Virus record (IMG/VR): IMGVR_UViG_3300030333_002512
Location: 1 to 64,000 of that record
Reading direction: 5' to 3' (one strand)
Source: a virus
DNA: 64,000 bases
Shown here: one piece after another, positions 34,724 through 56,365 of the stretch
Position numbering within the stretch: position 1 is the stretch's first letter
How the letters are laid out: each line of letters opens with the position of its first letter
The notes under the pieces: generated by a model
Database searches by the model: none
Told to the model about the DNA's origin: nothing
The model's input: only the letters and a program-made list of their open reading frames with translations
Made by a program: the position numbers and the translations under genes

Positions 34724-34987
34724 TTAATTCCCACCCCAATCATCTAGTGATGTCTGCTTGAATACCTTATTGCGGATATCAGATACGAGTTGTTTTGTAT
34801 CGCGTTTAATCTTGTTAAGTTGTTTGTTCAGGCGTGAATCTAACTTGCCCATAGCCTGAATATTGTTTATTTCCTCGTTAATGGAAGCAACGATTCTGTT
34901 TGCTTCTTTTAGTATGGCAAGTGTCGTTTCCTCATTAGCCATATGCGCGGCGAGTGGGCATAAGGCCATTAACTTGTCCGTGGGCAT
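34724..34987 (-). CDS. Hypothetical coiled-coil protein
   Basis: 87 aa. Confidence 0.45.
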   Translation of the reverse strand: MPTDKLMALCPLAAHMANEETTLAILKEANRIVASINEEINNIQAMGKLDSRLNKQLNKIKRDTKQLVSDIRNKVFKQTSLDDWGGN

Positions 34988-35012
34988 ATAGATTTGGAAA
35001 AAAATTTTGGAA

Positions 35013-35041
35013 GCAAAGCCATATGGTTGTAATTACTTTGT
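35013..35041. repeat. Nested palindrome copy 1 (left arm degenerate)
   Basis: GCAAAG-CCATATGG-TTGTAATT-ACTTTGT. Confidence 0.8.
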
Positions 35042-35087
35042 GCTATTGAAACCCCGATGGCCCCGAAGGGCGCAAAGGGGGAGGTGA

Positions 35088-35900
35088 TTAATCCCTAGCC
35101 GCTATTTTGGCTTCGCGCAACCGCCCGATGATGTCGGGAGCGCATTCGCTCCGGCTTTCTGTCTTCGCATCGAAGTGGCAGTCAATAACTGGCGCACTTG
35201 TATCGAAGCCCACTTCTTCCAGACACTCCTCGATTCTAGCCTGTATCCAAGCCATTGAATCAAGTGGGGTCGAAACAAGCCACTCCTCAATGTCTGACTT
35301 CTTCTGCGTCTTGTCGGCGGTTCGCCAAATAGTGAAGGCTAATCTTGCGTCACCATCTGAGCGGGATGGGTCTAACTTGACTCTCATCTTGGTGGAGTCA
35401 AGGGGGTCTTCTGCATCAAAGAAGTTGACGTAGTGTCCTTCAACATAACTCATTATCCAGTTGAGGTAACCACCACTTGGCCCCTCAATCATGTCGTTGG
35501 CTATTACGTTGTTACCTTTCCACTTGGGGAAACTTTTGCTTGTGGTAACTACCTTGGCTTCATCAAGGGTAACATCTCCCATGGTGTCCCAAAATTGGTC
35601 ACGAAGATGCCTGAGCATTGCTCTCATGCCCCTTCTCTCAGCACTATAATCGACCACGCCAAAGTCATGAATGAGTTCTTCATTCTCATCGCGCAACTTG
35701 AAAGTTCTCTCAGTCGTTGAGGACTCTTTCTCGTTGTAGTTCTCGAACTCCGGCTTGTCCGAATAGTTGCCCACCATGTATATGCCCATTAGGGCCAAGG
35801 CTCGTTGAAGTTTCTTCATCAACTTGGTGGATAACCTACCGTCTGCTCTTGGGTAGGTCACGTTCATCGTTCTTTCATATGTGACGGATGTGTCTGTCAT
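35088..35900 (-). CDS. Cassette gene, hypothetical (270 aa)
   Basis: Single ORF between palindromes 1 and 2; apparently leaderless. Confidence 0.7.
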   Translation of the reverse strand: MTDTSVTYERTMNVTYPRADGRLSTKLMKKLQRALALMGIYMVGNYSDKPEFENYNEKESSTTERTFKLRDENEELIHDFGVVDYSAERRGMRAMLRHLRDQFWDTMGDVTLDEAKVVTTSKSFPKWKGNNVIANDMIEGPSGGYLNWIMSYVEGHYVNFFDAEDPLDSTKMRVKLDPSRSDGDARLAFTIWRTADKTQKKSDIEEWLVSTPLDSMAWIQARIEECLEEVGFDTSAPVIDCHFDAKTESRSECAPDIIGRLREAKIAARD

Positions 35901-35939
35901 GCTAATGCTCCGAAACTGGGGTATGTGAGGTTACGAAGA

Positions 35940-35978
35940 CACAAAGTATCGAACCATATGGTTCATACTTACTTTGTG
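35940..35978. repeat. Nested palindrome copy 2
   Basis: CACAAAGT-ATC-GAACCATATGGTTC-ATACTT-ACTTTGTG. Confidence 0.9.
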
Positions 35979-36098
35979 AGAAGATGAACCCCGTTGATGG
36001 TGGGAGGAGAGAAGTGGCCAGTTTCTCTCCCCCCTAGCCCGAATGCTGCTCAGTGCGCCCCTCCCTATAGGGGGGCGGCGATGCACCCAACATCGGGG

Positions 36099-36482
36099 TC
36101 AGTAATTGCTAGGCATATCATACCAAAGCGCGTCTTGGATGGAATCAGATAGTCCATCCGCCCAATTCTCCCAATCAGTTGCAAGGTTTGCCCACTTGTC
36201 AACCTCCTCTGCAAGATTCATGAACATGATTTGCTGATGGGGAGTAAATTCTTCGAAATCCTCAATCTTCATACTCGATGATTCAATGCTCTCCATCAAC
36301 ACCGAGTAAACTTGGTCGAACCGATAATCCAAGTTCCTTCGGATTATGTCTAACTCAAGGTCGATGTGAACTTGAAGTTCATCATCTATTTCATCATATC
36401 CTGAAGAGTAGATGTTGGTCACTCTTTCAGTCTCTTTCTTCATTTGGGCTTCAATGTAGGTTGCTCTTAGGCTCTCTGACAT
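36099..36482 (-). CDS. Cassette gene, acidic hypothetical protein
   Basis: 127 aa, D/E-rich. Confidence 0.65.
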   Translation of the reverse strand: MSESLRATYIEAQMKKETERVTNIYSSGYDEIDDELQVHIDLELDIIRRNLDYRFDQVYSVLMESIESSSMKIEDFEEFTPHQQIMFMNLAEEVDKWANLATDWENWADGLSDSIQDALWYDMPSNY

Positions 36483-36521
36483 GTTAATACCCCGAAATAG
36501 GGGTATGTGAGGTAGCCGTTC

Positions 36522-36555
36522 ACAAAGTAGCCTACCATATGGTAATACACTTTGT
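36522..36555. repeat. Nested palindrome copy 3
   Basis: ACAAAGT-AGCC-TACCATATGGTA-ATAC-ACTTTGT. Confidence 0.9.
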
Positions 36556-36607
36556 CGTTAAACCCGATAGGACTTAAGTGATAGTTTCACTGCCTATTGA
36601 ATTATGA

Positions 36608-36820
36608 CTAACAGTCACAGTCCTCGCCATGCTCACAAGTCATTTTATTGAATGCTCGTAATGCTGCTTGAACTTCCTGTATCGCATTAGCCAAATCATC
36701 ACTTCGAACCTTTAGGCTCTTGATGATGATGACATGATTTGAACCACTCTTTGAGTGACCAACATCAATTTCATACTGATATACTTTCATTGCTTCATTT
36801 ACTATTTTTTCACTTTCCAT
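36608..36820 (-). CDS. Cassette gene, hypothetical
   Basis: 70 aa; AGGTGA RBS. Confidence 0.6.
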   Translation of the reverse strand: MESEKIVNEAMKVYQYEIDVGHSKSGSNHVIIIKSLKVRSDDLANAIQEVQAALRAFNKMTCEHGEDCDC

Positions 36821-36829
36821 TTTTTCACC

Positions 36830-37012
36830 TTATCTCATTACTACCTTTCCACGATATTGATTCATATAATTTTGAAATCTCGCACTATCAAAATTATAGT
36901 TAGTCCGAGAACATCGGTTAATCAATAACTCAGTCTGTCTTCTGTCTAATTCCGCATCAACTGCAAACTCTGCAAGCCATACGAAATGCCTTCTTTGTAG
37001 GTTTATTGCCAT
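36830..37012 (-). CDS. Cassette gene, small phage-type protein
   Basis: RRHF...N.NFD..RF pattern seen in small early phage proteins. Confidence 0.6.
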   Translation of the reverse strand: MAINLQRRHFVWLAEFAVDAELDRRQTELLINRCSRTNYNFDSARFQNYMNQYRGKVVMR

Positions 37013-37048
37013 ACCTACGTTTCGGAATTAGGCTACTTGTGGTCTGTC

Positions 37049-37088
37049 TGACAAAGTAGCATACCATATGGTTGTCATTACTTTGTCA
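37049..37088. repeat. Nested palindrome copy 4
   Basis: TGACAAAGT-AGCAT-ACCATATGGT-TGTCATT-ACTTTGTCA. Confidence 0.9.
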
Positions 37089-37133
37089 TAAGATAACCCC
37101 GAAGGGTTCGGTTGTCCGTGGAGAGACTACCGA

Positions 37134-37736
37134 TTATTGCTCCTCCTTTGCGGAGGCCTTCTTTGCTGCTGCTGCGGCTTTCAGCGCGGGGATGTTGTTA
37201 ATTAGAGGGGTAGCCGTTCCCTTCCAATGATAATCGGCTTTCGGACTGTCGGGATTATTCTGATAGTCGTTGTAGTAAGTGCCGAGGTTCTGCCTGAGTG
37301 AAGTGTCAATGCGATAATCTGCAAACTCTTCGGCGGAAGTGAATACTCCTCCTCCACCTCTCTTCGATTTAACTTCGAAATTCTGTGCTTGCTTGCATCC
37401 TTTCCAGTAGGCAATCAGTGCTTTCCTCATTTCCTTCAATTCTGAAGTCCTCGTTTCTTCTACCTTGTCGGGTAGGCTTGAAGTTGCACCTGCTGCGAAT
37501 GGATTGTCCGGAACTTCATCAGTCACGAAGCACGTTCGAATAGCCGTAGCGATTCGGGTGCGCTTTTCGGGTTTCTTCTTCCCTCTCTTGATTAGAGAAG
37601 GAATACTCATCAAACCCTCAAACTCTTCTGTCCAGTTCGGATTGTCCTTAACCCAGTTCTTCCACTTGGTTTCGTAAGACTTCCACTTTTCGTCACTCAT
37701 TGGTTCTGCCTTTTGTCTCGTATTCTTTTCTGTCAT
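37134..37736 (-). CDS. Cassette gene, basic protein (paralog of 37921-38388)
   Basis: Shares I.RG....K..R..TAIR...D.P, SLPD and W.G with the next gene. Confidence 0.7.
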   Translation of the reverse strand: MTEKNTRQKAEPMSDEKWKSYETKWKNWVKDNPNWTEEFEGLMSIPSLIKRGKKKPEKRTRIATAIRTCFVTDEVPDNPFAAGATSSLPDKVEETRTSELKEMRKALIAYWKGCKQAQNFEVKSKRGGGGVFTSAEEFADYRIDTSLRQNLGTYYNDYQNNPDSPKADYHWKGTATPLINNIPALKAAAAAKKASAKEEQ

Positions 37737-37816
37737 TGTATTATCTCCTTACCTTGTTCGGTAATGCCCTCCACGGACAGTTAATGTTCTAGGTATGTGG
37801 TATGTGGGGTGCGCAA

Positions 37817-37852
37817 GACAAAGTAACTTACCATATGGTAATGCACTTTGTC
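37817..37852. repeat. Nested palindrome copy 5
   Basis: GACAAAGT-AAC-TTACCATATGGTAA-TGC-ACTTTGTC. Confidence 0.9.
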
Positions 37853-37920
37853 GCTAAATTCCCCATAAGGGCCGAAGCCCAAAATGGAGGTGCTAGGGAG
37901 GGAAGGCAAAATCAACTACT

Positions 37921-38388
37921 TCAGTTGCCCTCCGTTACGATGGTGGCAACTAGGCTCTTCTCAGAGCCATCCCATGTCTTGTCCTCAAATAGAGAACGTG
38001 CCGTGTCGTTCATGTGGCCAACAAGGACACTTGCCCATGCTGCGCCATCTTCGTAGTGAGAAGCCTTGCTCCTTCCATGAGGAAGAAGTAGAGCCTGAAT
38101 AACTGGGTCACTGTCAAAAGTGGCAGCCATAGACTCAACAGCCTCAATTGCTCCCTTAATGACAGCCGAAGCCGCATCAGGAAGTGAGAAACCCCTTTGG
38201 TTAGTGGGGCTATCGCTGTAGTCACCAAGTATCAGCCTAATGGCCGTGGTGCAGCGAGCCTGTTTCTTCTCGTTTGCATTCCCTCTCTCAATCATCCTTA
38301 GAACAGTGGTCTTGTCATCTGTGTCTATCTCAGATTTCTTGTCGTTCGCATATGTGGTTACTAATCCGCTAAATTCATTCCAATCCAT
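37921..38388 (-). CDS. Cassette gene (paralog of 37134-37736)
   Basis: 155 aa; AGGAG RBS. Confidence 0.7.
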   Translation of the reverse strand: MDWNEFSGLVTTYANDKKSEIDTDDKTTVLRMIERGNANEKKQARCTTAIRLILGDYSDSPTNQRGFSLPDAASAVIKGAIEAVESMAATFDSDPVIQALLLPHGRSKASHYEDGAAWASVLVGHMNDTARSLFEDKTWDGSEKSLVATIVTEGN

Positions 38389-38468
38389 ATTATCAATCTC
38401 CTGTAAGGTTGTCTACCAACCCTCCTTAGCAATAGAATCTTGGAAAAATAGGTATTTGGGGGCTGACC

Positions 38469-38505
38469 GACAAAGTGTTCCTACCATATGGTTGCTATTT
38501 TTGGT
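38469..38505. repeat. Nested palindrome copy 6 (right arm degenerate)
   Basis: GACAAAGT-GTTCCT-ACCATATGGT-TGCT-ATTTTTGGT. Confidence 0.8.
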
Positions 38506-39069: not shown

Positions 39070-39660
39070 CCATTGAATCTTAGCGGAGGAAATGCACAGT
39101 CGGGGCTTAGGGTTTGAGTGTTAAAGAAAGAAGAAGATACAAGGGTTGTCCATCATCCCTGAGAGAGAAGGAAACTTGTTTCCCGATTTTTCTTTGGTGA
39201 GCGGAGTTACTTAGGTTAAGCGAGCATGTTTAACCTACTGTCCGGTATAAGAAGCGTAAGCAGCAGTAGTCGGTATTACAGTAAACAAAATCATTGCACC
39301 TAGTCACGGTGTAATATGCACCCCTGCGCTCAATGGCATAGCACAGTCTTTCTCCCCTAAGCATCCCATTCGATATGTCCGGAACCCCCATATTATTCCG
39401 GATAACTGTAAGGTAGTAATACCAACCTATCGGACTAGGTTTGAGACATCAGTAATTGTTGGTTTTTGTCTTTGGTTTCCAACACCCTAGTTCGTAACAA
39501 CTCACAATGGCCCAGTCAGAACCGCAGTAATGCGGGGTTCATTGTGTGGAATAAAAGGTTCTAGATTGAATTGCACTGTAGGCTCGCATTCGCCTGTTTG
39601 GGGTTCGTCTAGGTAATTAGAAGTAAATAGTGCTGATACTTCTTTCCATTATTTCACATG
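39070..39660 (+). ncRNA. Putative large structured non-coding RNA
   Basis: ORF-free; many hairpins including GUAA tetraloops (GGTA-GTAA-TACC, CCGCA-GTAA-TGCGG) and G-U pairs favouring the plus strand. Boundaries approximate. Confidence 0.4.
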
Positions 39661-39728
39661 ATTAACGACTTGGTTATGCCACTATAAATACCCTCATAAG
39701 CAATGTAATAGTAAAGGAGAATGAAAAT

Positions 39729-42888: not shown

Positions 42889-43039
42889 GTGTAAGATGTG
42901 TAATGGTAGTGGAACCATTTTAGTTAGATGTCATTATCATGGTGATATCAGTCATGCAGAACCATGTATCTGTCACTATGAAAACTACTTCATGCAAATA
43001 CATGCGATTAATGATGACACAGTAATGGAGGAAGAATAA
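42881..43039 (+). CDS. Small Zn-finger protein (DnaJ-type CxxCxGxG)
   Basis: CKMCNGSG...PCIC. Confidence 0.5.
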   Translation: MSECKMCNGSGTILVRCHYHGDISHAEPCICHYENYFMQIHAINDDTVMEEE

Positions 43040-43383
43040 TGAGAATGTGGATGATAGACCCAAAGATGATGTGTAACCAACACTTGTTAGGAGAACATGG
43101 AGAACTGCATAAGTTCATTCCTAGTTTCCATAAGAAGTATAGTGTTACCAAGAGAATAGAACCTGTGGTTCAAATAGAACTCTCCTCTTATCAGGAGAGA
43201 CATGATGAACTAGCAGAAGAGATGTTGCGTAGAGGTATGAACCATAAGTCACCTTTACCAACATTACCAGATTTTTCGTATCTGCCTGATGAGCATTACA
43301 ATGCCAAGGTGGATATTGAGAACAGTATTGAGGATTTGAAAAATAGATGTCCTCAATGCAAAATTAAATTGGAGGCAGAATAA
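43039..43383 (+). CDS. Pyrimidine dimer DNA glycosylase / endonuclease V-like
   Basis: MRMWMIDP...QHLLGEHGELH...RHDELAEEMLRRG.NH.SP family signature. Confidence 0.8.
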   Translation: MRMWMIDPKMMCNQHLLGEHGELHKFIPSFHKKYSVTKRIEPVVQIELSSYQERHDELAEEMLRRGMNHKSPLPTLPDFSYLPDEHYNAKVDIENSIEDLKNRCPQCKIKLEAE

Positions 43384-54618: not shown

Positions 54619-54849
54619 ATGGAAGATGATTGGAAAACGATAGCAAGAATAACTCGAAACGCAACTTCGGATTGTGTCATCTCAGCAGGGACATATTGGA
54701 AGATACCTGTTGTTGATATTAGATGGCACTCCGATGGGAAGCCAACGAGGAAGGGTGTTAGAGTGAACATGGAAGAGTTGCCTGTATTGATTAAGGCACT
54801 TCAAAAGATTGAGAATAAGAATAAGGTGAATGAGGATGACACTAGTTAG
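54619..54849 (+). CDS. PC4/Sub1-like ssDNA-binding protein
   Basis: VVDIRW...KPTRKGVRV...EL is the PC4 signature. Confidence 0.8.
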   Translation: MEDDWKTIARITRNATSDCVISAGTYWKIPVVDIRWHSDGKPTRKGVRVNMEELPVLIKALQKIENKNKVNEDDTS

Positions 54850-56365
54850 ATTTGCAAGGATGTGTGAAGCACTAGAACAAGCCAACGGTTCAAACAGAAA
54901 GATAGAGATACTCCGTGAATCTCTTCGGGCGTTTTCTAACCCGGAGTTAGTATTGAGGATTCTCTCGGATGAGTTGGAGCCTAACAATATTGGAAAGGAT
55001 AGGGTATTAACTTGGCTTGCTCAAATGTTTGAGGTATTTGAAGATGAAATACAATCTCAAATAGATACTTGGGGAGACATAGGAGAAGGAATGTTAGAAT
55101 TTCTTTGTGGAAGGAAGGAAATGGATGGACAACTTTCGATTTTCTCCCTATTTAGACTGTTAAATATTGATTGTAGTTCGATTCAGAATAATTCTTTTAC
55201 TCTCATTAAAGATGAACTCACAAATTGTTCTGCTTTAGAAGTTAAATGGTTCATTCGTTATTGGATTAGGACTCCAAGGAATGGAGTTTCACATTCAACT
55301 GTCATTAAGATGTTGAATAAGGAGTATCCCGATAAAGAAGTTAATCGGTATGCTAATTATGCAACAATAGAAGAGTTGTATAATTGGTGTGAGAATGATG
55401 TGCCTATAAGCATGACAAATATGATTGGTCGTTTCATTAAGCCAATGCTGGCTAAGACATTTAAGGATAATTTGCCTGATGAATATGTGATTGACCTGAA
55501 ATATGATGGTAACAGGTATCAGATACACCACTCTCCAGATACTACTATGATATTCAACAGAGCAGGTAAGTTAGTTACTGAACAGTATCCAGATGTAGTT
55601 AGTATATTGGAAGACTGTGAAGATACCTTCATTGTTGACGCGGAGATTTATCCAGTCAACCATGATGGCTCTCCCGCAGAACACAAGAAACTAGGAACGA
55701 GAGTGCATTCTAAAGATAAGGCTCAAGCCGTAGCAGATTGCCCAGTAAAACTGGCCGTCTTTGACATGATGTATGATGGGTTTGAGTCTCTTCTTGATAT
55801 GCCATATAGAACACGACTAGAGCAACTAGAGAAATTTGTTGTTCTAAGGCCACACAATGCAATGCTCCTATCGCCGGACATTGTTACTTCCTACAACTAC
55901 GCAATCAATGAAGGATACGAAGGTATCATGATTAAGGATTTGAATGCGCCATACGAATCTAAGAGAAGTAAGGCTTTATTGAAACACAAACCACCGTTGA
56001 TAGAATTAGATGTGGTAATTACATCAGCCAAGTATGGAGATGGTAAGCGAAGCAATGTATTCGGAACCTTTGGTATTTCTGTTAGAGATGATAATGGTGA
56101 CTATGTTAGAATCGGTTCTATTGGAACAGGGTTTAGTGACGATGACTTGTCCCTGCTGACAACAAGGTTGAAGCAACTCACTGAGAAATATGAGAAGGAT
56201 GAATGGTTCTTCTTACCCCGTATTGTATTGGAAGTGAATGCAGATTTAGTCTCACAGGATTCTGATGGAAACTATGGTCTTAGATTCCCTAGAGTCAAGA
56301 GGATTCGTGATGACAAATATGCAGCAGATGTCAATACGATTGATGATGTAATTGCACTGTCATAA
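54830..56365 (+). CDS. lig: ATP-dependent DNA ligase (replicative, archaeal type)
   Basis: KPMLA, KYDG, IVDAE, VFD, EGIMIK, LLKHK, LRFPR...RDDK. Confidence 0.93.
   Translation: MRMTLVRFARMCEALEQANGSNRKIEILRESLRAFSNPELVLRILSDELEPNNIGKDRVLTWLAQMFEVFEDEIQSQIDTWGDIGEGMLEFLCGRKEMDGQLSIFSLFRLLNIDCSSIQNNSFTLIKDELTNCSALEVKWFIRYWIRTPRNGVSHSTVIKMLNKEYPDKEVNRYANYATIEELYNWCENDVPISMTNMIGRFIKPMLAKTFKDNLPDEYVIDLKYDGNRYQIHHSPDTTMIFNRAGKLVTEQYPDVVSILEDCEDTFIVDAEIYPVNHDGSPAEHKKLGTRVHSKDKAQAVADCPVKLAVFDMMYDGFESLLDMPYRTRLEQLEKFVVLRPHNAMLLSPDIVTSYNYAINEGYEGIMIKDLNAPYESKRSKALLKHKPPLIELDVVITSAKYGDGKRSNVFGTFGISVRDDNGDYVRIGSIGTGFSDDDLSLLTTRLKQLTEKYEKDEWFFLPRIVLEVNADLVSQDSDGNYGLRFPRVKRIRDDKYAADVNTIDDVIALS

Follow-up and report, generated by a model that had tools for sequence, protein, structure and literature searches.

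A nested palindrome upstream of promoter-like boxes and at the rearrangement breakpoints of a gene-cassette array in an uncultured marine virus

Results

The present study concerns an array of small genes separated by six copies of a nested palindrome in the IMG/VR record IMGVR_UViG_3300030333_002512 (77,125 bp, 82% complete). Bases 1-64000 of the record, a stretch of 64,000 nucleotides (nt), make up the window that was analysed. The genes run leftward from ~38.4 kb and rightward from 39.7 kb. The left, structural arm encodes the portal, a protease, the capsid protein and the terminase, with a second ligase domain located within it, and the right, replicative arm encodes a UvrD-type helicase, a ribonucleotide reductase, an ATP-dependent ligase and an RFC-type clamp loader. 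The palindrome array is the very beginning of the leftward arm and lies beside the zone of divergence and the minimum of the cumulative GC skew. Outside the array, the genes were tightly packed and operon-like, with ribosome-binding sites ahead of most of them.

In the surface ocean, magroviruses rank among the most abundant viruses; they and their Poseidoniales hosts are alike uncultured. We know of no account of how magrovirus genes are switched on, and in the magrovirus literature that was searched the words promoter and palindrome were absent, the sole motif mentioned being a protein helix-turn-helix. The virus studied here is treated as a magrovirus, an archaeal tailed virus of marine Poseidoniales, because of the relatives of its portal, its two ATP-dependent ligases and its RFC-type clamp loader. 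The closest cultured relatives of the portal were haloarchaeal tailed viruses and a Methanomassiliicoccales virus, and the record combined a halovirus-like structural module, an archaeal-type replication suite and the pair of ligases, all hallmarks of the group. Philosof et al. (PMC5434244) single out a second ligase in the structural module as a notable trait of the magroviruses, which infect marine group II archaea. A nucleotide search of the phage collection gave zero matches.

The element itself, ACAAAGT-n5-ACCATATGGT-n5..8-ACTTTGT, was present in four exact copies, at 35941, 36522, 37051 and 37818, and did not occur in 100 shuffles of the sequence. The 10-bp centre ACCATATGGT was found five times exact in the array and once with one mismatch. 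The copies, in the direction of transcription, are as follows.

38470..38505, unstranded: palindrome copy 1, the first; ACAAAGT promoter-side arm and core intact, far arm degenerate
37818..37851, unstranded: palindrome copy 2; exact, spacers 5/5
37051..37086, unstranded: palindrome copy 3; exact, spacers 5/7
36522..36555, unstranded: palindrome copy 4; exact, spacers 5/5
35941..35977, unstranded: palindrome copy 5; exact, spacers 5/8
35012..35041, unstranded: palindrome copy 6, the last; one-mismatch core, far arm intact, promoter-side arm shrunk to TTTGC touching the core

The core of copy 6, at 35018, reads GCCATATGGT, and its good outer arm, ACTTTGT, lies only on the right side of the plus strand; copy 1, at 38470, likewise has a single good outer arm. 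The first-pass annotation of this DNA, made from the sequence by a model, had described six nested palindromes with fixed arms and core, variable spacers and half-formed copies at the two ends, seen nowhere else. Apart from coordinates that were off by 1-2 nt, this description held. Four exact and two half-degenerate copies are not expected by chance, an alignment of all the junctions showed constant arms and core between variable spacers, and a scan of the entire 77,125-bp record, including the remaining 13 kb, found no core with an arm beyond the array. One-mismatch cores outside the array numbered two (8049 and 21159), which is the chance level (1.96 expected).

Read on the minus strand, the six junctions shared a common layout: the preceding stop codon is followed by a GC-rich hairpin, and then come the palindrome, a box of the CCYCAMATACC type beginning 11-13 nt beyond the end of the promoter-side arm, and the gene. 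The earlier description of units composed of hairpin, gene and promoter was borne out in this orientation: every cassette ends in a hairpin and is headed by a TATA-like box of its own, with constant spacing to the ATG. The distance between box and ATG was 29 nt in three cassettes, too short to accommodate a leader, and 72 nt in two others, in which GGAGG or AAGGAG lies within the leader. The boxes and the two hairpins located precisely are given below, gene lengths being in amino acids (aa).

38451..38460, minus strand: TATA-like box CCCAAATACC, 72 nt upstream of the ATG of the 155-aa gene; leader with GGAGG
37799..37808, minus strand: TATA-like box CCCACATACC, 72 nt upstream of the ATG of the 200-aa gene; leader with AAGGAG
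37032..37041, minus strand: TATA-like box CACAAGTAGC, 29 nt upstream of the ATG, leaderless
36502..36511, minus strand: TATA-like box CTCACATACC, 29 nt upstream of the ATG, leaderless
35920..35929, minus strand: TATA-like box CTCACATACC, 29 nt upstream of the ATG, leaderless
34985..34994, minus strand: TATA-like box TCTATATG, containing the first ATG of the listed 87-aa open reading frame (ORF)
37869..37880, minus strand: GC hairpin with a UUCG-type loop closing cassette 1, right before palindrome copy 2
37099..37111, minus strand: GC hairpin CCGAACCCTTCGG closing cassette 2, right before palindrome copy 3

The real start of the 87-aa ORF is probably the next in-frame ATG, about 20 nt (18 nt) downstream, which would give a protein of ~81 aa and again a leaderless message. 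In archaea, the TATA box lies ~27 nt ahead of the transcription start and leaderless mRNAs are frequent. From this pattern and the geometry of the TATA-like boxes, the palindrome is predicted to be centred near -58 and to span ~-42 to -75 of an archaeal promoter, as a symmetric site directly upstream of the TFB-recognition element (BRE) and the TATA box. The boxes of this window were poor TATA matches. A bacterial sigma-70 promoter was rejected when a scan gave no more sites than did shuffled sequences.

IMG/VR was scanned with one arm plus the centre, and at least 118 stretches were recovered, many of them on contigs of 70-97 kb and frequently containing several copies. These loci held at least 474 unique centres, 208 two-armed, 194 one-armed and 72 armless, and over 465 unique copies the distance from the centre to the next start codon peaked at 40-60 nt. 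The family alignment reads ACCATATGGT, 4-8 nt, (A)CTTTG(T), 6-10 nt, ACCYYATA, ~22 nt, ATG. The box began 27-30 nt upstream of the ATG in most copies in which the box pattern was found, and the end of the core was 19-23 nt from the box and 50-52 nt from a leaderless ATG. Among 120 clearly oriented copies, the promoter-side arm was present in 88%, behind a narrow spacer, and the far arm in 73%, behind a wider one. Some copies have a complete set of arm, box and start codon on either side, so that one centre can serve two divergent genes.

In five relatives, four of them complete (~96 kb), all of the 5-13 centres fell within a single cluster of 3-5 kb and none lay elsewhere. When loci were found through a neighbouring conserved gene, with no use of the motif, the core was upstream in all ten that had at least 7 kb of upstream DNA (10/10), even though this gene was only 51-67% identical. 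The core was also invariant across viruses whose proteins were only 50-65% identical. In 185,579 prokaryote genomes, a search for the two-armed pattern recovered 36 stretches, a count close to chance expectation that included nothing archaeal; a host regulon was rejected on this ground.

One cellular match had several copies. NZ_NZTP01000027.1, a 14.7-kb contig of a metagenome-assembled genome (MAG) named 'Altibacter sp.' (Flavobacteriaceae), has five two-armed copies and shares 81% nucleotide identity with L086, a viral contig; mis-binning of a magrovirus-like contig into the MAG is the most likely explanation. A Bacteroidota -33/-7 promoter was considered after this match and was rejected, as the spacing of ~8-10 nt between CTTTG and the TATA-like box does not fit. 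In a sub-group of the relatives (L115:400-5000, L070:8300-11000 and L027:4600-7165), the centres were merely 100-150 nt apart, too close for ordinary genes, and a second word, ACGCTAAGT or ACGCTTAGT, followed many of them after ~12 nt in place of the CTTTG arm. The closely spaced units, which also form the most rearranged sub-group, may represent small RNAs, micro-ORFs or a further class of promoter.

A comparison of gene order among related genomes, which had been proposed as a check on the cassettes, showed that their order differs and that the breakpoints fall inside the CCATATGG centre, with chimeric centres and inversions. The nearest relative has the same cassettes, the proteins being 51-92% identical, and its 200-aa cassette is two slots further on. 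Nucleotide alignments between it and the window began and ended at the centres, and the two flanks of each centre matched different partners. In one pair, 88% identical, cassettes had been replaced or added, the similarity switching on and off at the centre. The best pair, 90-95% identical, had eight abutting junctions, several of them inversions, all of which lay within CCATATGG, centres with one mismatch included; one centre was a chimera, T-CCATATGG-A, with the parents T..T and A..A. A 320-bp inversion in another pair was bounded by two centres. Across the whole set of loci, alignments ended within 15 nt of a centre about four times as often as at random positions in the arrays (19% vs 5%), and in 39 discordant core pairs the identity of the first base next to the centre was 0.87 on the side with homology against 0.41 on the unrelated side (baseline 0.37). 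Gain, loss and reordering occurred exactly at the site, as in integrons, and the homology breaks within CCATATGG agree with the earlier suggestion that the units are joined at the core.

The exchange is apparently one on an evolutionary scale rather than a fast programmed switch, because one identical order was shared by the four contigs, a small sample, that represent the lineage of the nearest relative; they came from different samples and were 98.5-100% alike. A single metagenome scan for near-identical strains with another cassette order returned this lineage only, with one order. Searches for tyrosine recombinases (PF00589) and serine recombinases (PF00239) were empty in the 77-kb record and in the four complete relatives, and the tyrosine recombinase profile scored in all 14 of the control genomes (14/14). 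The absence of a visible recombinase, remarked on in the first-pass annotation for the window, extended in this way, for these two types, to the whole record and to the four complete relatives. In the arrays of the best pair, ~13 repeats other than the core were 10 bp or longer and ~60 were 8 bp or longer, and the core was present in 10-17 copies per array.

The form of the site was judged from its spacers and its folding. The spacers were of unequal length in 80% of 218 two-armed copies, and where the lengths were equal their complementarity was not above that of shuffled partners (0.35 vs 0.43). The copies of the window fold weakly as single strands (-4.6 to -6.7 kcal/mol) and no Rfam family matched the element. 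A folded RNA or DNA element was rejected on the basis of the missing Rfam match, the weak hairpins and the lack of compensatory spacers. Since the spacers are unequal and non-complementary, the element is therefore taken to be a putative double-stranded site for a symmetric protein, conserved in sequence and not in structure, rather than a folded att site of the attC kind or a hairpin promoter.

The cassette genes are listed below.

37921..38388, minus strand: cassette 1 gene, 155 aa; largest motif-led family, paralogue of the 200-aa gene
37134..37736, minus strand: cassette 2 gene, 200 aa; family of the 155-aa gene, in another slot in the nearest relative
36830..37012, minus strand: cassette 3 first gene, 60 aa; predicted three-helix bundle (predicted local distance difference test, pLDDT, 90)
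36608..36820, minus strand: cassette 3 second gene, 70 aa; predicted beta-hairpin plus helix
36099..36482, minus strand: cassette 4 gene, 127 aa
35088..35900, minus strand: cassette 5 gene, 270 aa; present in ~35 related loci
34724..34987, minus strand: cassette 6 gene, 87 aa as listed; coiled-coil-like

The cassette proteins were searched against Pfam and PHROGs, with a profile search of the PDB, in the ESM Atlas and, for two AlphaFold models, with Foldseek. The cassette genes matched nothing in Pfam or PHROGs. In the at least 118 loci, the 385 motif-led proteins fell into 173 clusters, 129 of which were singletons. The family of the 155- and 200-aa proteins comprised 92 members, spread over 65 loci and often present several times in one array, with G36, P61, W139 and G141 nearly invariant and W3 invariant, and gave no lead in Pfam, the PDB or the Atlas. 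The 70-aa protein was the best conserved, 92% identical to that of the nearest relative, and its AlphaFold model had no Foldseek matches. The weak fold matches of the 60-aa three-helix bundle were mostly to homeodomain and helix-turn-helix (HTH) DNA binders and were not significant (E > 4); this family was present in ~10 of the loci. In two relatives (L119:3385-3702 and L124:10332-10631), its members have an N-terminal CxxC...CxC zinc ribbon, which would fit a role in nucleic acid binding.

Several other observations were made in the replicative arm. The first rightward gene (window 39640-39728) has a canonical TATA box, CTATAAATA, ~45 nt ahead of its ATG, together with AAGGAG and no palindrome, and its promoter appears to be of another class than those of the array. 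A small pyrimidine-dimer DNA glycosylase is encoded at window 43039-43383 (Pfam Pyr_excise, E 4e-12); a UV-repair enzyme of this kind would suit a virus of the surface ocean. The closest sequences to the ligase of this arm (window 54830-56365) in a one-genome-per-species GTDB were from marine Alphaproteobacteria, at ~27% identity and with no archaea; these were Pelagibacter-like single-cell genomes and MAGs.

Discussion

The anatomy of the junctions, the conservation of the element throughout the family, its confinement to one cluster per genome and the breakpoints at its centre are best accounted for, with reasonable confidence, by a palindrome that is the upstream half of a modular archaeal promoter, in units resembling the promoter-early stem-loop (PeSL) elements of T4-type phages, and whose centre doubles as a crossover point for cassettes. 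A symmetric dimer or tetramer would bind the double-stranded palindrome directly upstream of the TFB and TBP sites and co-regulate a single class of genes, small, accessory and probably early, beside the point where the two arms diverge. On balance, the bound factor would be an activator that recruits TBP and TFB to weak TATA boxes, and an Aca-like repressor would be the less expected arrangement; activation is favoured because the site is upstream of the BRE and TATA box and because the boxes of this window are poor TATA matches. An operator for a dimeric or tetrameric activator of the earliest genes had been put forward at the outset as an alternative to cassette recombination. Of all the proposals made then, it best fits the fixed position upstream of the TATA-like box, with binding and early timing as its conjectural parts.

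The GC hairpin would terminate the transcript of the preceding cassette. Recombination at short homology between the self-complementary centres would exchange, move, delete or invert entire promoter-gene-terminator units, and selection would retain only the recombinants with intact units, so that each unit stays functional. Magroviruses encode a RadA-like ATPase, a single-stranded DNA-binding protein and nucleases (PMC5434244). The centre of 8-10 bp is the only stretch that is identical at all junctions and its own reverse complement, and the units would, as a consequence, be exchanged and inverted exactly there.

The closest known system appears to be the PeSLs, mobile regulatory cassettes of T4-type phages (Arbiol et al. 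2010, PMC2839356; Comeau et al. 2014, PMC4122927). PeSLs, like the array, are repeated intergenic modules with a host-type promoter, here judged from sequence anatomy to be TATA-type, and a terminator stem-loop; they are concentrated in a hyperplastic region ahead of small genes of unknown function, and the insertions, deletions and replacements between close relatives end in the motif. The PeSL promoter is of the sigma-70 type, however, whereas the putative promoter of the array is TATA-type, often leaderless and archaeal. Moreover, the conserved part of the array unit is not the promoter hexamers but a separate nested palindrome of 34-37 bp, upstream and with an invariant 10-bp centre. This self-complementary site also supports inversion, and one cluster per genome holds all of the copies.

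Two groups of archaeal viruses offer further comparisons. According to the account in PMC3950731, the halovirus HGTV-1 has a motif consisting of a TATA box plus an inverted repeat ahead of most ORFs of its left part (Sencilo et al. 2013), and its authors had already likened the motif to PeSLs and proposed roles in regulation and shuffling. The array shares with HGTV-1, as described there, a TATA-like stretch combined with an inverted repeat ahead of many small ORFs in an archaeal tailed virus. Shuffling is only suggested in that account, whereas the breakpoints reported here were mapped to the centre of the palindrome. A motif common to both was rejected, since the 144 kb of HGTV-1 contain merely four scattered CCATATGG 8-mers, the chance level. 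In the halovirus HF2, intergenic repeats bear promoters (PMC8707807). The Sulfolobus virus SIRV2 has a shared early regulatory sequence and the regulator Aca8 (Bhoobalan-Chitty et al. 2024, PMC11065993); there, as in the array, many small, fast-evolving and mostly single-gene units have one regulatory sequence and unrelated coding sequences, and a small DNA-binding protein is proposed to control the class (PMC11065993). The conserved part in SIRV2 is a strong core promoter of BRE plus TATA box, in contrast to a palindrome upstream of a variable and often weak box. In addition, hosts and viruses are unrelated, and the early, anti-defence role in SIRV2 has as its counterpart here a presumed early timing.

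With regard to position, Ptr2 and TFB-RF1 are archaeal activators with upstream activating sites. The palindrome, whose sequence we take to be unrelated to those of the known activator sites, is likewise a symmetric site directly upstream of the BRE and TATA box, where such activators recruit TBP or TFB, while its nested symmetry, in three parts and with a flexible outer arm, is unusual. Sta1, which acts on rudivirus promoters, provides the same likeness in the form of the upstream activating site described in PMC1635249.

The array also resembles the attC/attI sites of integrons and the shufflons in that gene-sized units lie between repeated imperfect palindromes and are reordered or inverted at the repeat. 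The integron-like system with a new att site that had been suggested at the outset is not upheld by the present results. Integrons have promoterless cassettes served by one common promoter and a folded attC site of variable sequence, whereas here each cassette has, from its sequence anatomy, its own TATA-like box and the site is invariant in sequence. No integrase of the tyrosine or serine type was found in this record or in the four complete relatives, and the order was stable among strains 98.5-100% alike; the frequent programmed inversion, dedicated recombinase and mixed orders of a shufflon were not observed.

Several considerations weigh against the proposed promoter and crossover site: 1) the start sites, the timing and the terminator function are deduced from geometry as their sole basis, 2) the TATA boxes are good in many other lineages, which weakens the argument that a weak promoter needs an activator, 3) an activator of the first genes must be host-encoded or virion-borne, and the two-armed palindrome is not above chance in cellular genomes, 4) none of the cassette proteins tested had a significant fold or family match that would point to the binding protein, 5) an identity of 8-10 bp is short for homologous recombination of the RadA type and 6) all eight junctions of the best pair were cleanly at cores despite the presence of other repeats of 8-12 bp, leaving room for an enzyme that acts at the site.

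The second and third of these points lend themselves to an operator for a virus-encoded, Aca-like repressor, an explanation that we regard as unlikely but deserving of attention. The promoters would then fire at once by means of host factors, as suits the earliest genes, which cannot await a viral activator, and a DNA-binding protein made from a cassette would shut the class off. The virus-specific motif and the good TATA boxes of many lineages are consistent with this, as is the 60-aa three-helix bundle with its weak homeodomain and HTH matches and the zinc ribbon of its relatives. A precedent exists in SIRV2, where the shared regulatory sequence drives small early anti-defence genes and Aca8, a winged HTH protein, is the proposed repressor (PMC11065993). 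On the other hand, the predicted position of the site is that at which the known archaeal activators bind, and the boxes of this window are poor. Archaeal repressors usually cover the BRE and TATA box or the start site, which also speaks for a factor of the opposite kind. Furthermore, the 60-aa family, with fold matches short of significance, is found in too few of the at least 118 loci to be a universal factor.

The crossovers raise the question of an unrecognised enzyme of virus or host, either a new recombinase or a nuclease cutting at the centre of the palindrome, that exchanges, excises and inverts cassettes at an att-like, promoter-adjacent site ACCATATGGT. We consider such an enzyme improbable. 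It would explain why the breaks fall inside the 8-bp centre, with chimeric centres and inversions, why all eight junctions of the best pair chose cores over the other short repeats, and why the core is invariant across such divergent viruses; magroviruses do encode several nucleases, among them a LAGLIDADG enzyme (PMC5434244). However, the searches for tyrosine and serine recombinases were empty in this record and in the four complete relatives while the control genomes all scored, and the single order of the four near-identical contigs indicates that shuffling is not frequent. The eight junctions discriminate only weakly, moreover, as the 10-17 cores per array offer far more pairs than the other repeats and only recombinants at the junctions keep the genes intact. 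An att role would also leave the fixed distance to the TATA box and the ATG unexplained. Far less probable still is a function of the copies as iterons of a replication origin or as signals for staged DNA entry or packaging at the switch of strand and GC skew. The array does adjoin the change of gene direction and the minimum of the cumulative skew, and a cluster of identical palindromes of the protein-binding type is what such a function would call for, but nothing was found in support of the nick or stop signals for staged entry that had been offered as an explanation of the array. One copy per gene, with constant spacing to a TATA-like box and a start codon, repeated in hundreds of copies, some serving divergent gene pairs, is not the arrangement of an origin, and the copies are set apart by whole genes rather than grouped around an AT-rich unwinding element. 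To our knowledge, the palindrome is also unlike the origin recognition boxes of archaea.

Conclusions

What is new in these results is the element itself, in an abundant and uncultured group of viruses, together with its architecture as a nested palindrome upstream of the core promoter, the confinement of its copies to a single cluster in each genome and the mapping of breakpoints, inversions included, to a centre of 8-10 bp. The element defines, by sequence alone, one putatively co-regulated class of genes in at least 118 viral loci, marks probable transcription starts and flags the genes that are likeliest to be the first to act on the host; small genes led by a shared motif proved, in other archaeal viruses, to be anti-defence genes (PMC11065993). 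Were the site instead the target of an enzyme, it would represent a new recombination system, integron- or shufflon-like, in archaeal viruses, operating without a tyrosine or serine recombinase at a site that doubles as a promoter element. As a modular promoter and crossover point, the palindrome gives a clean view of modular evolution, in which promoter-gene-terminator units are exchanged, moved and flipped at a palindrome of 8-10 bp, and would carry the PeSL concept over from T4-type phages to the viruses of archaea. In such arrays, symmetry of the site may be favoured, since a cassette would be functional in either orientation.

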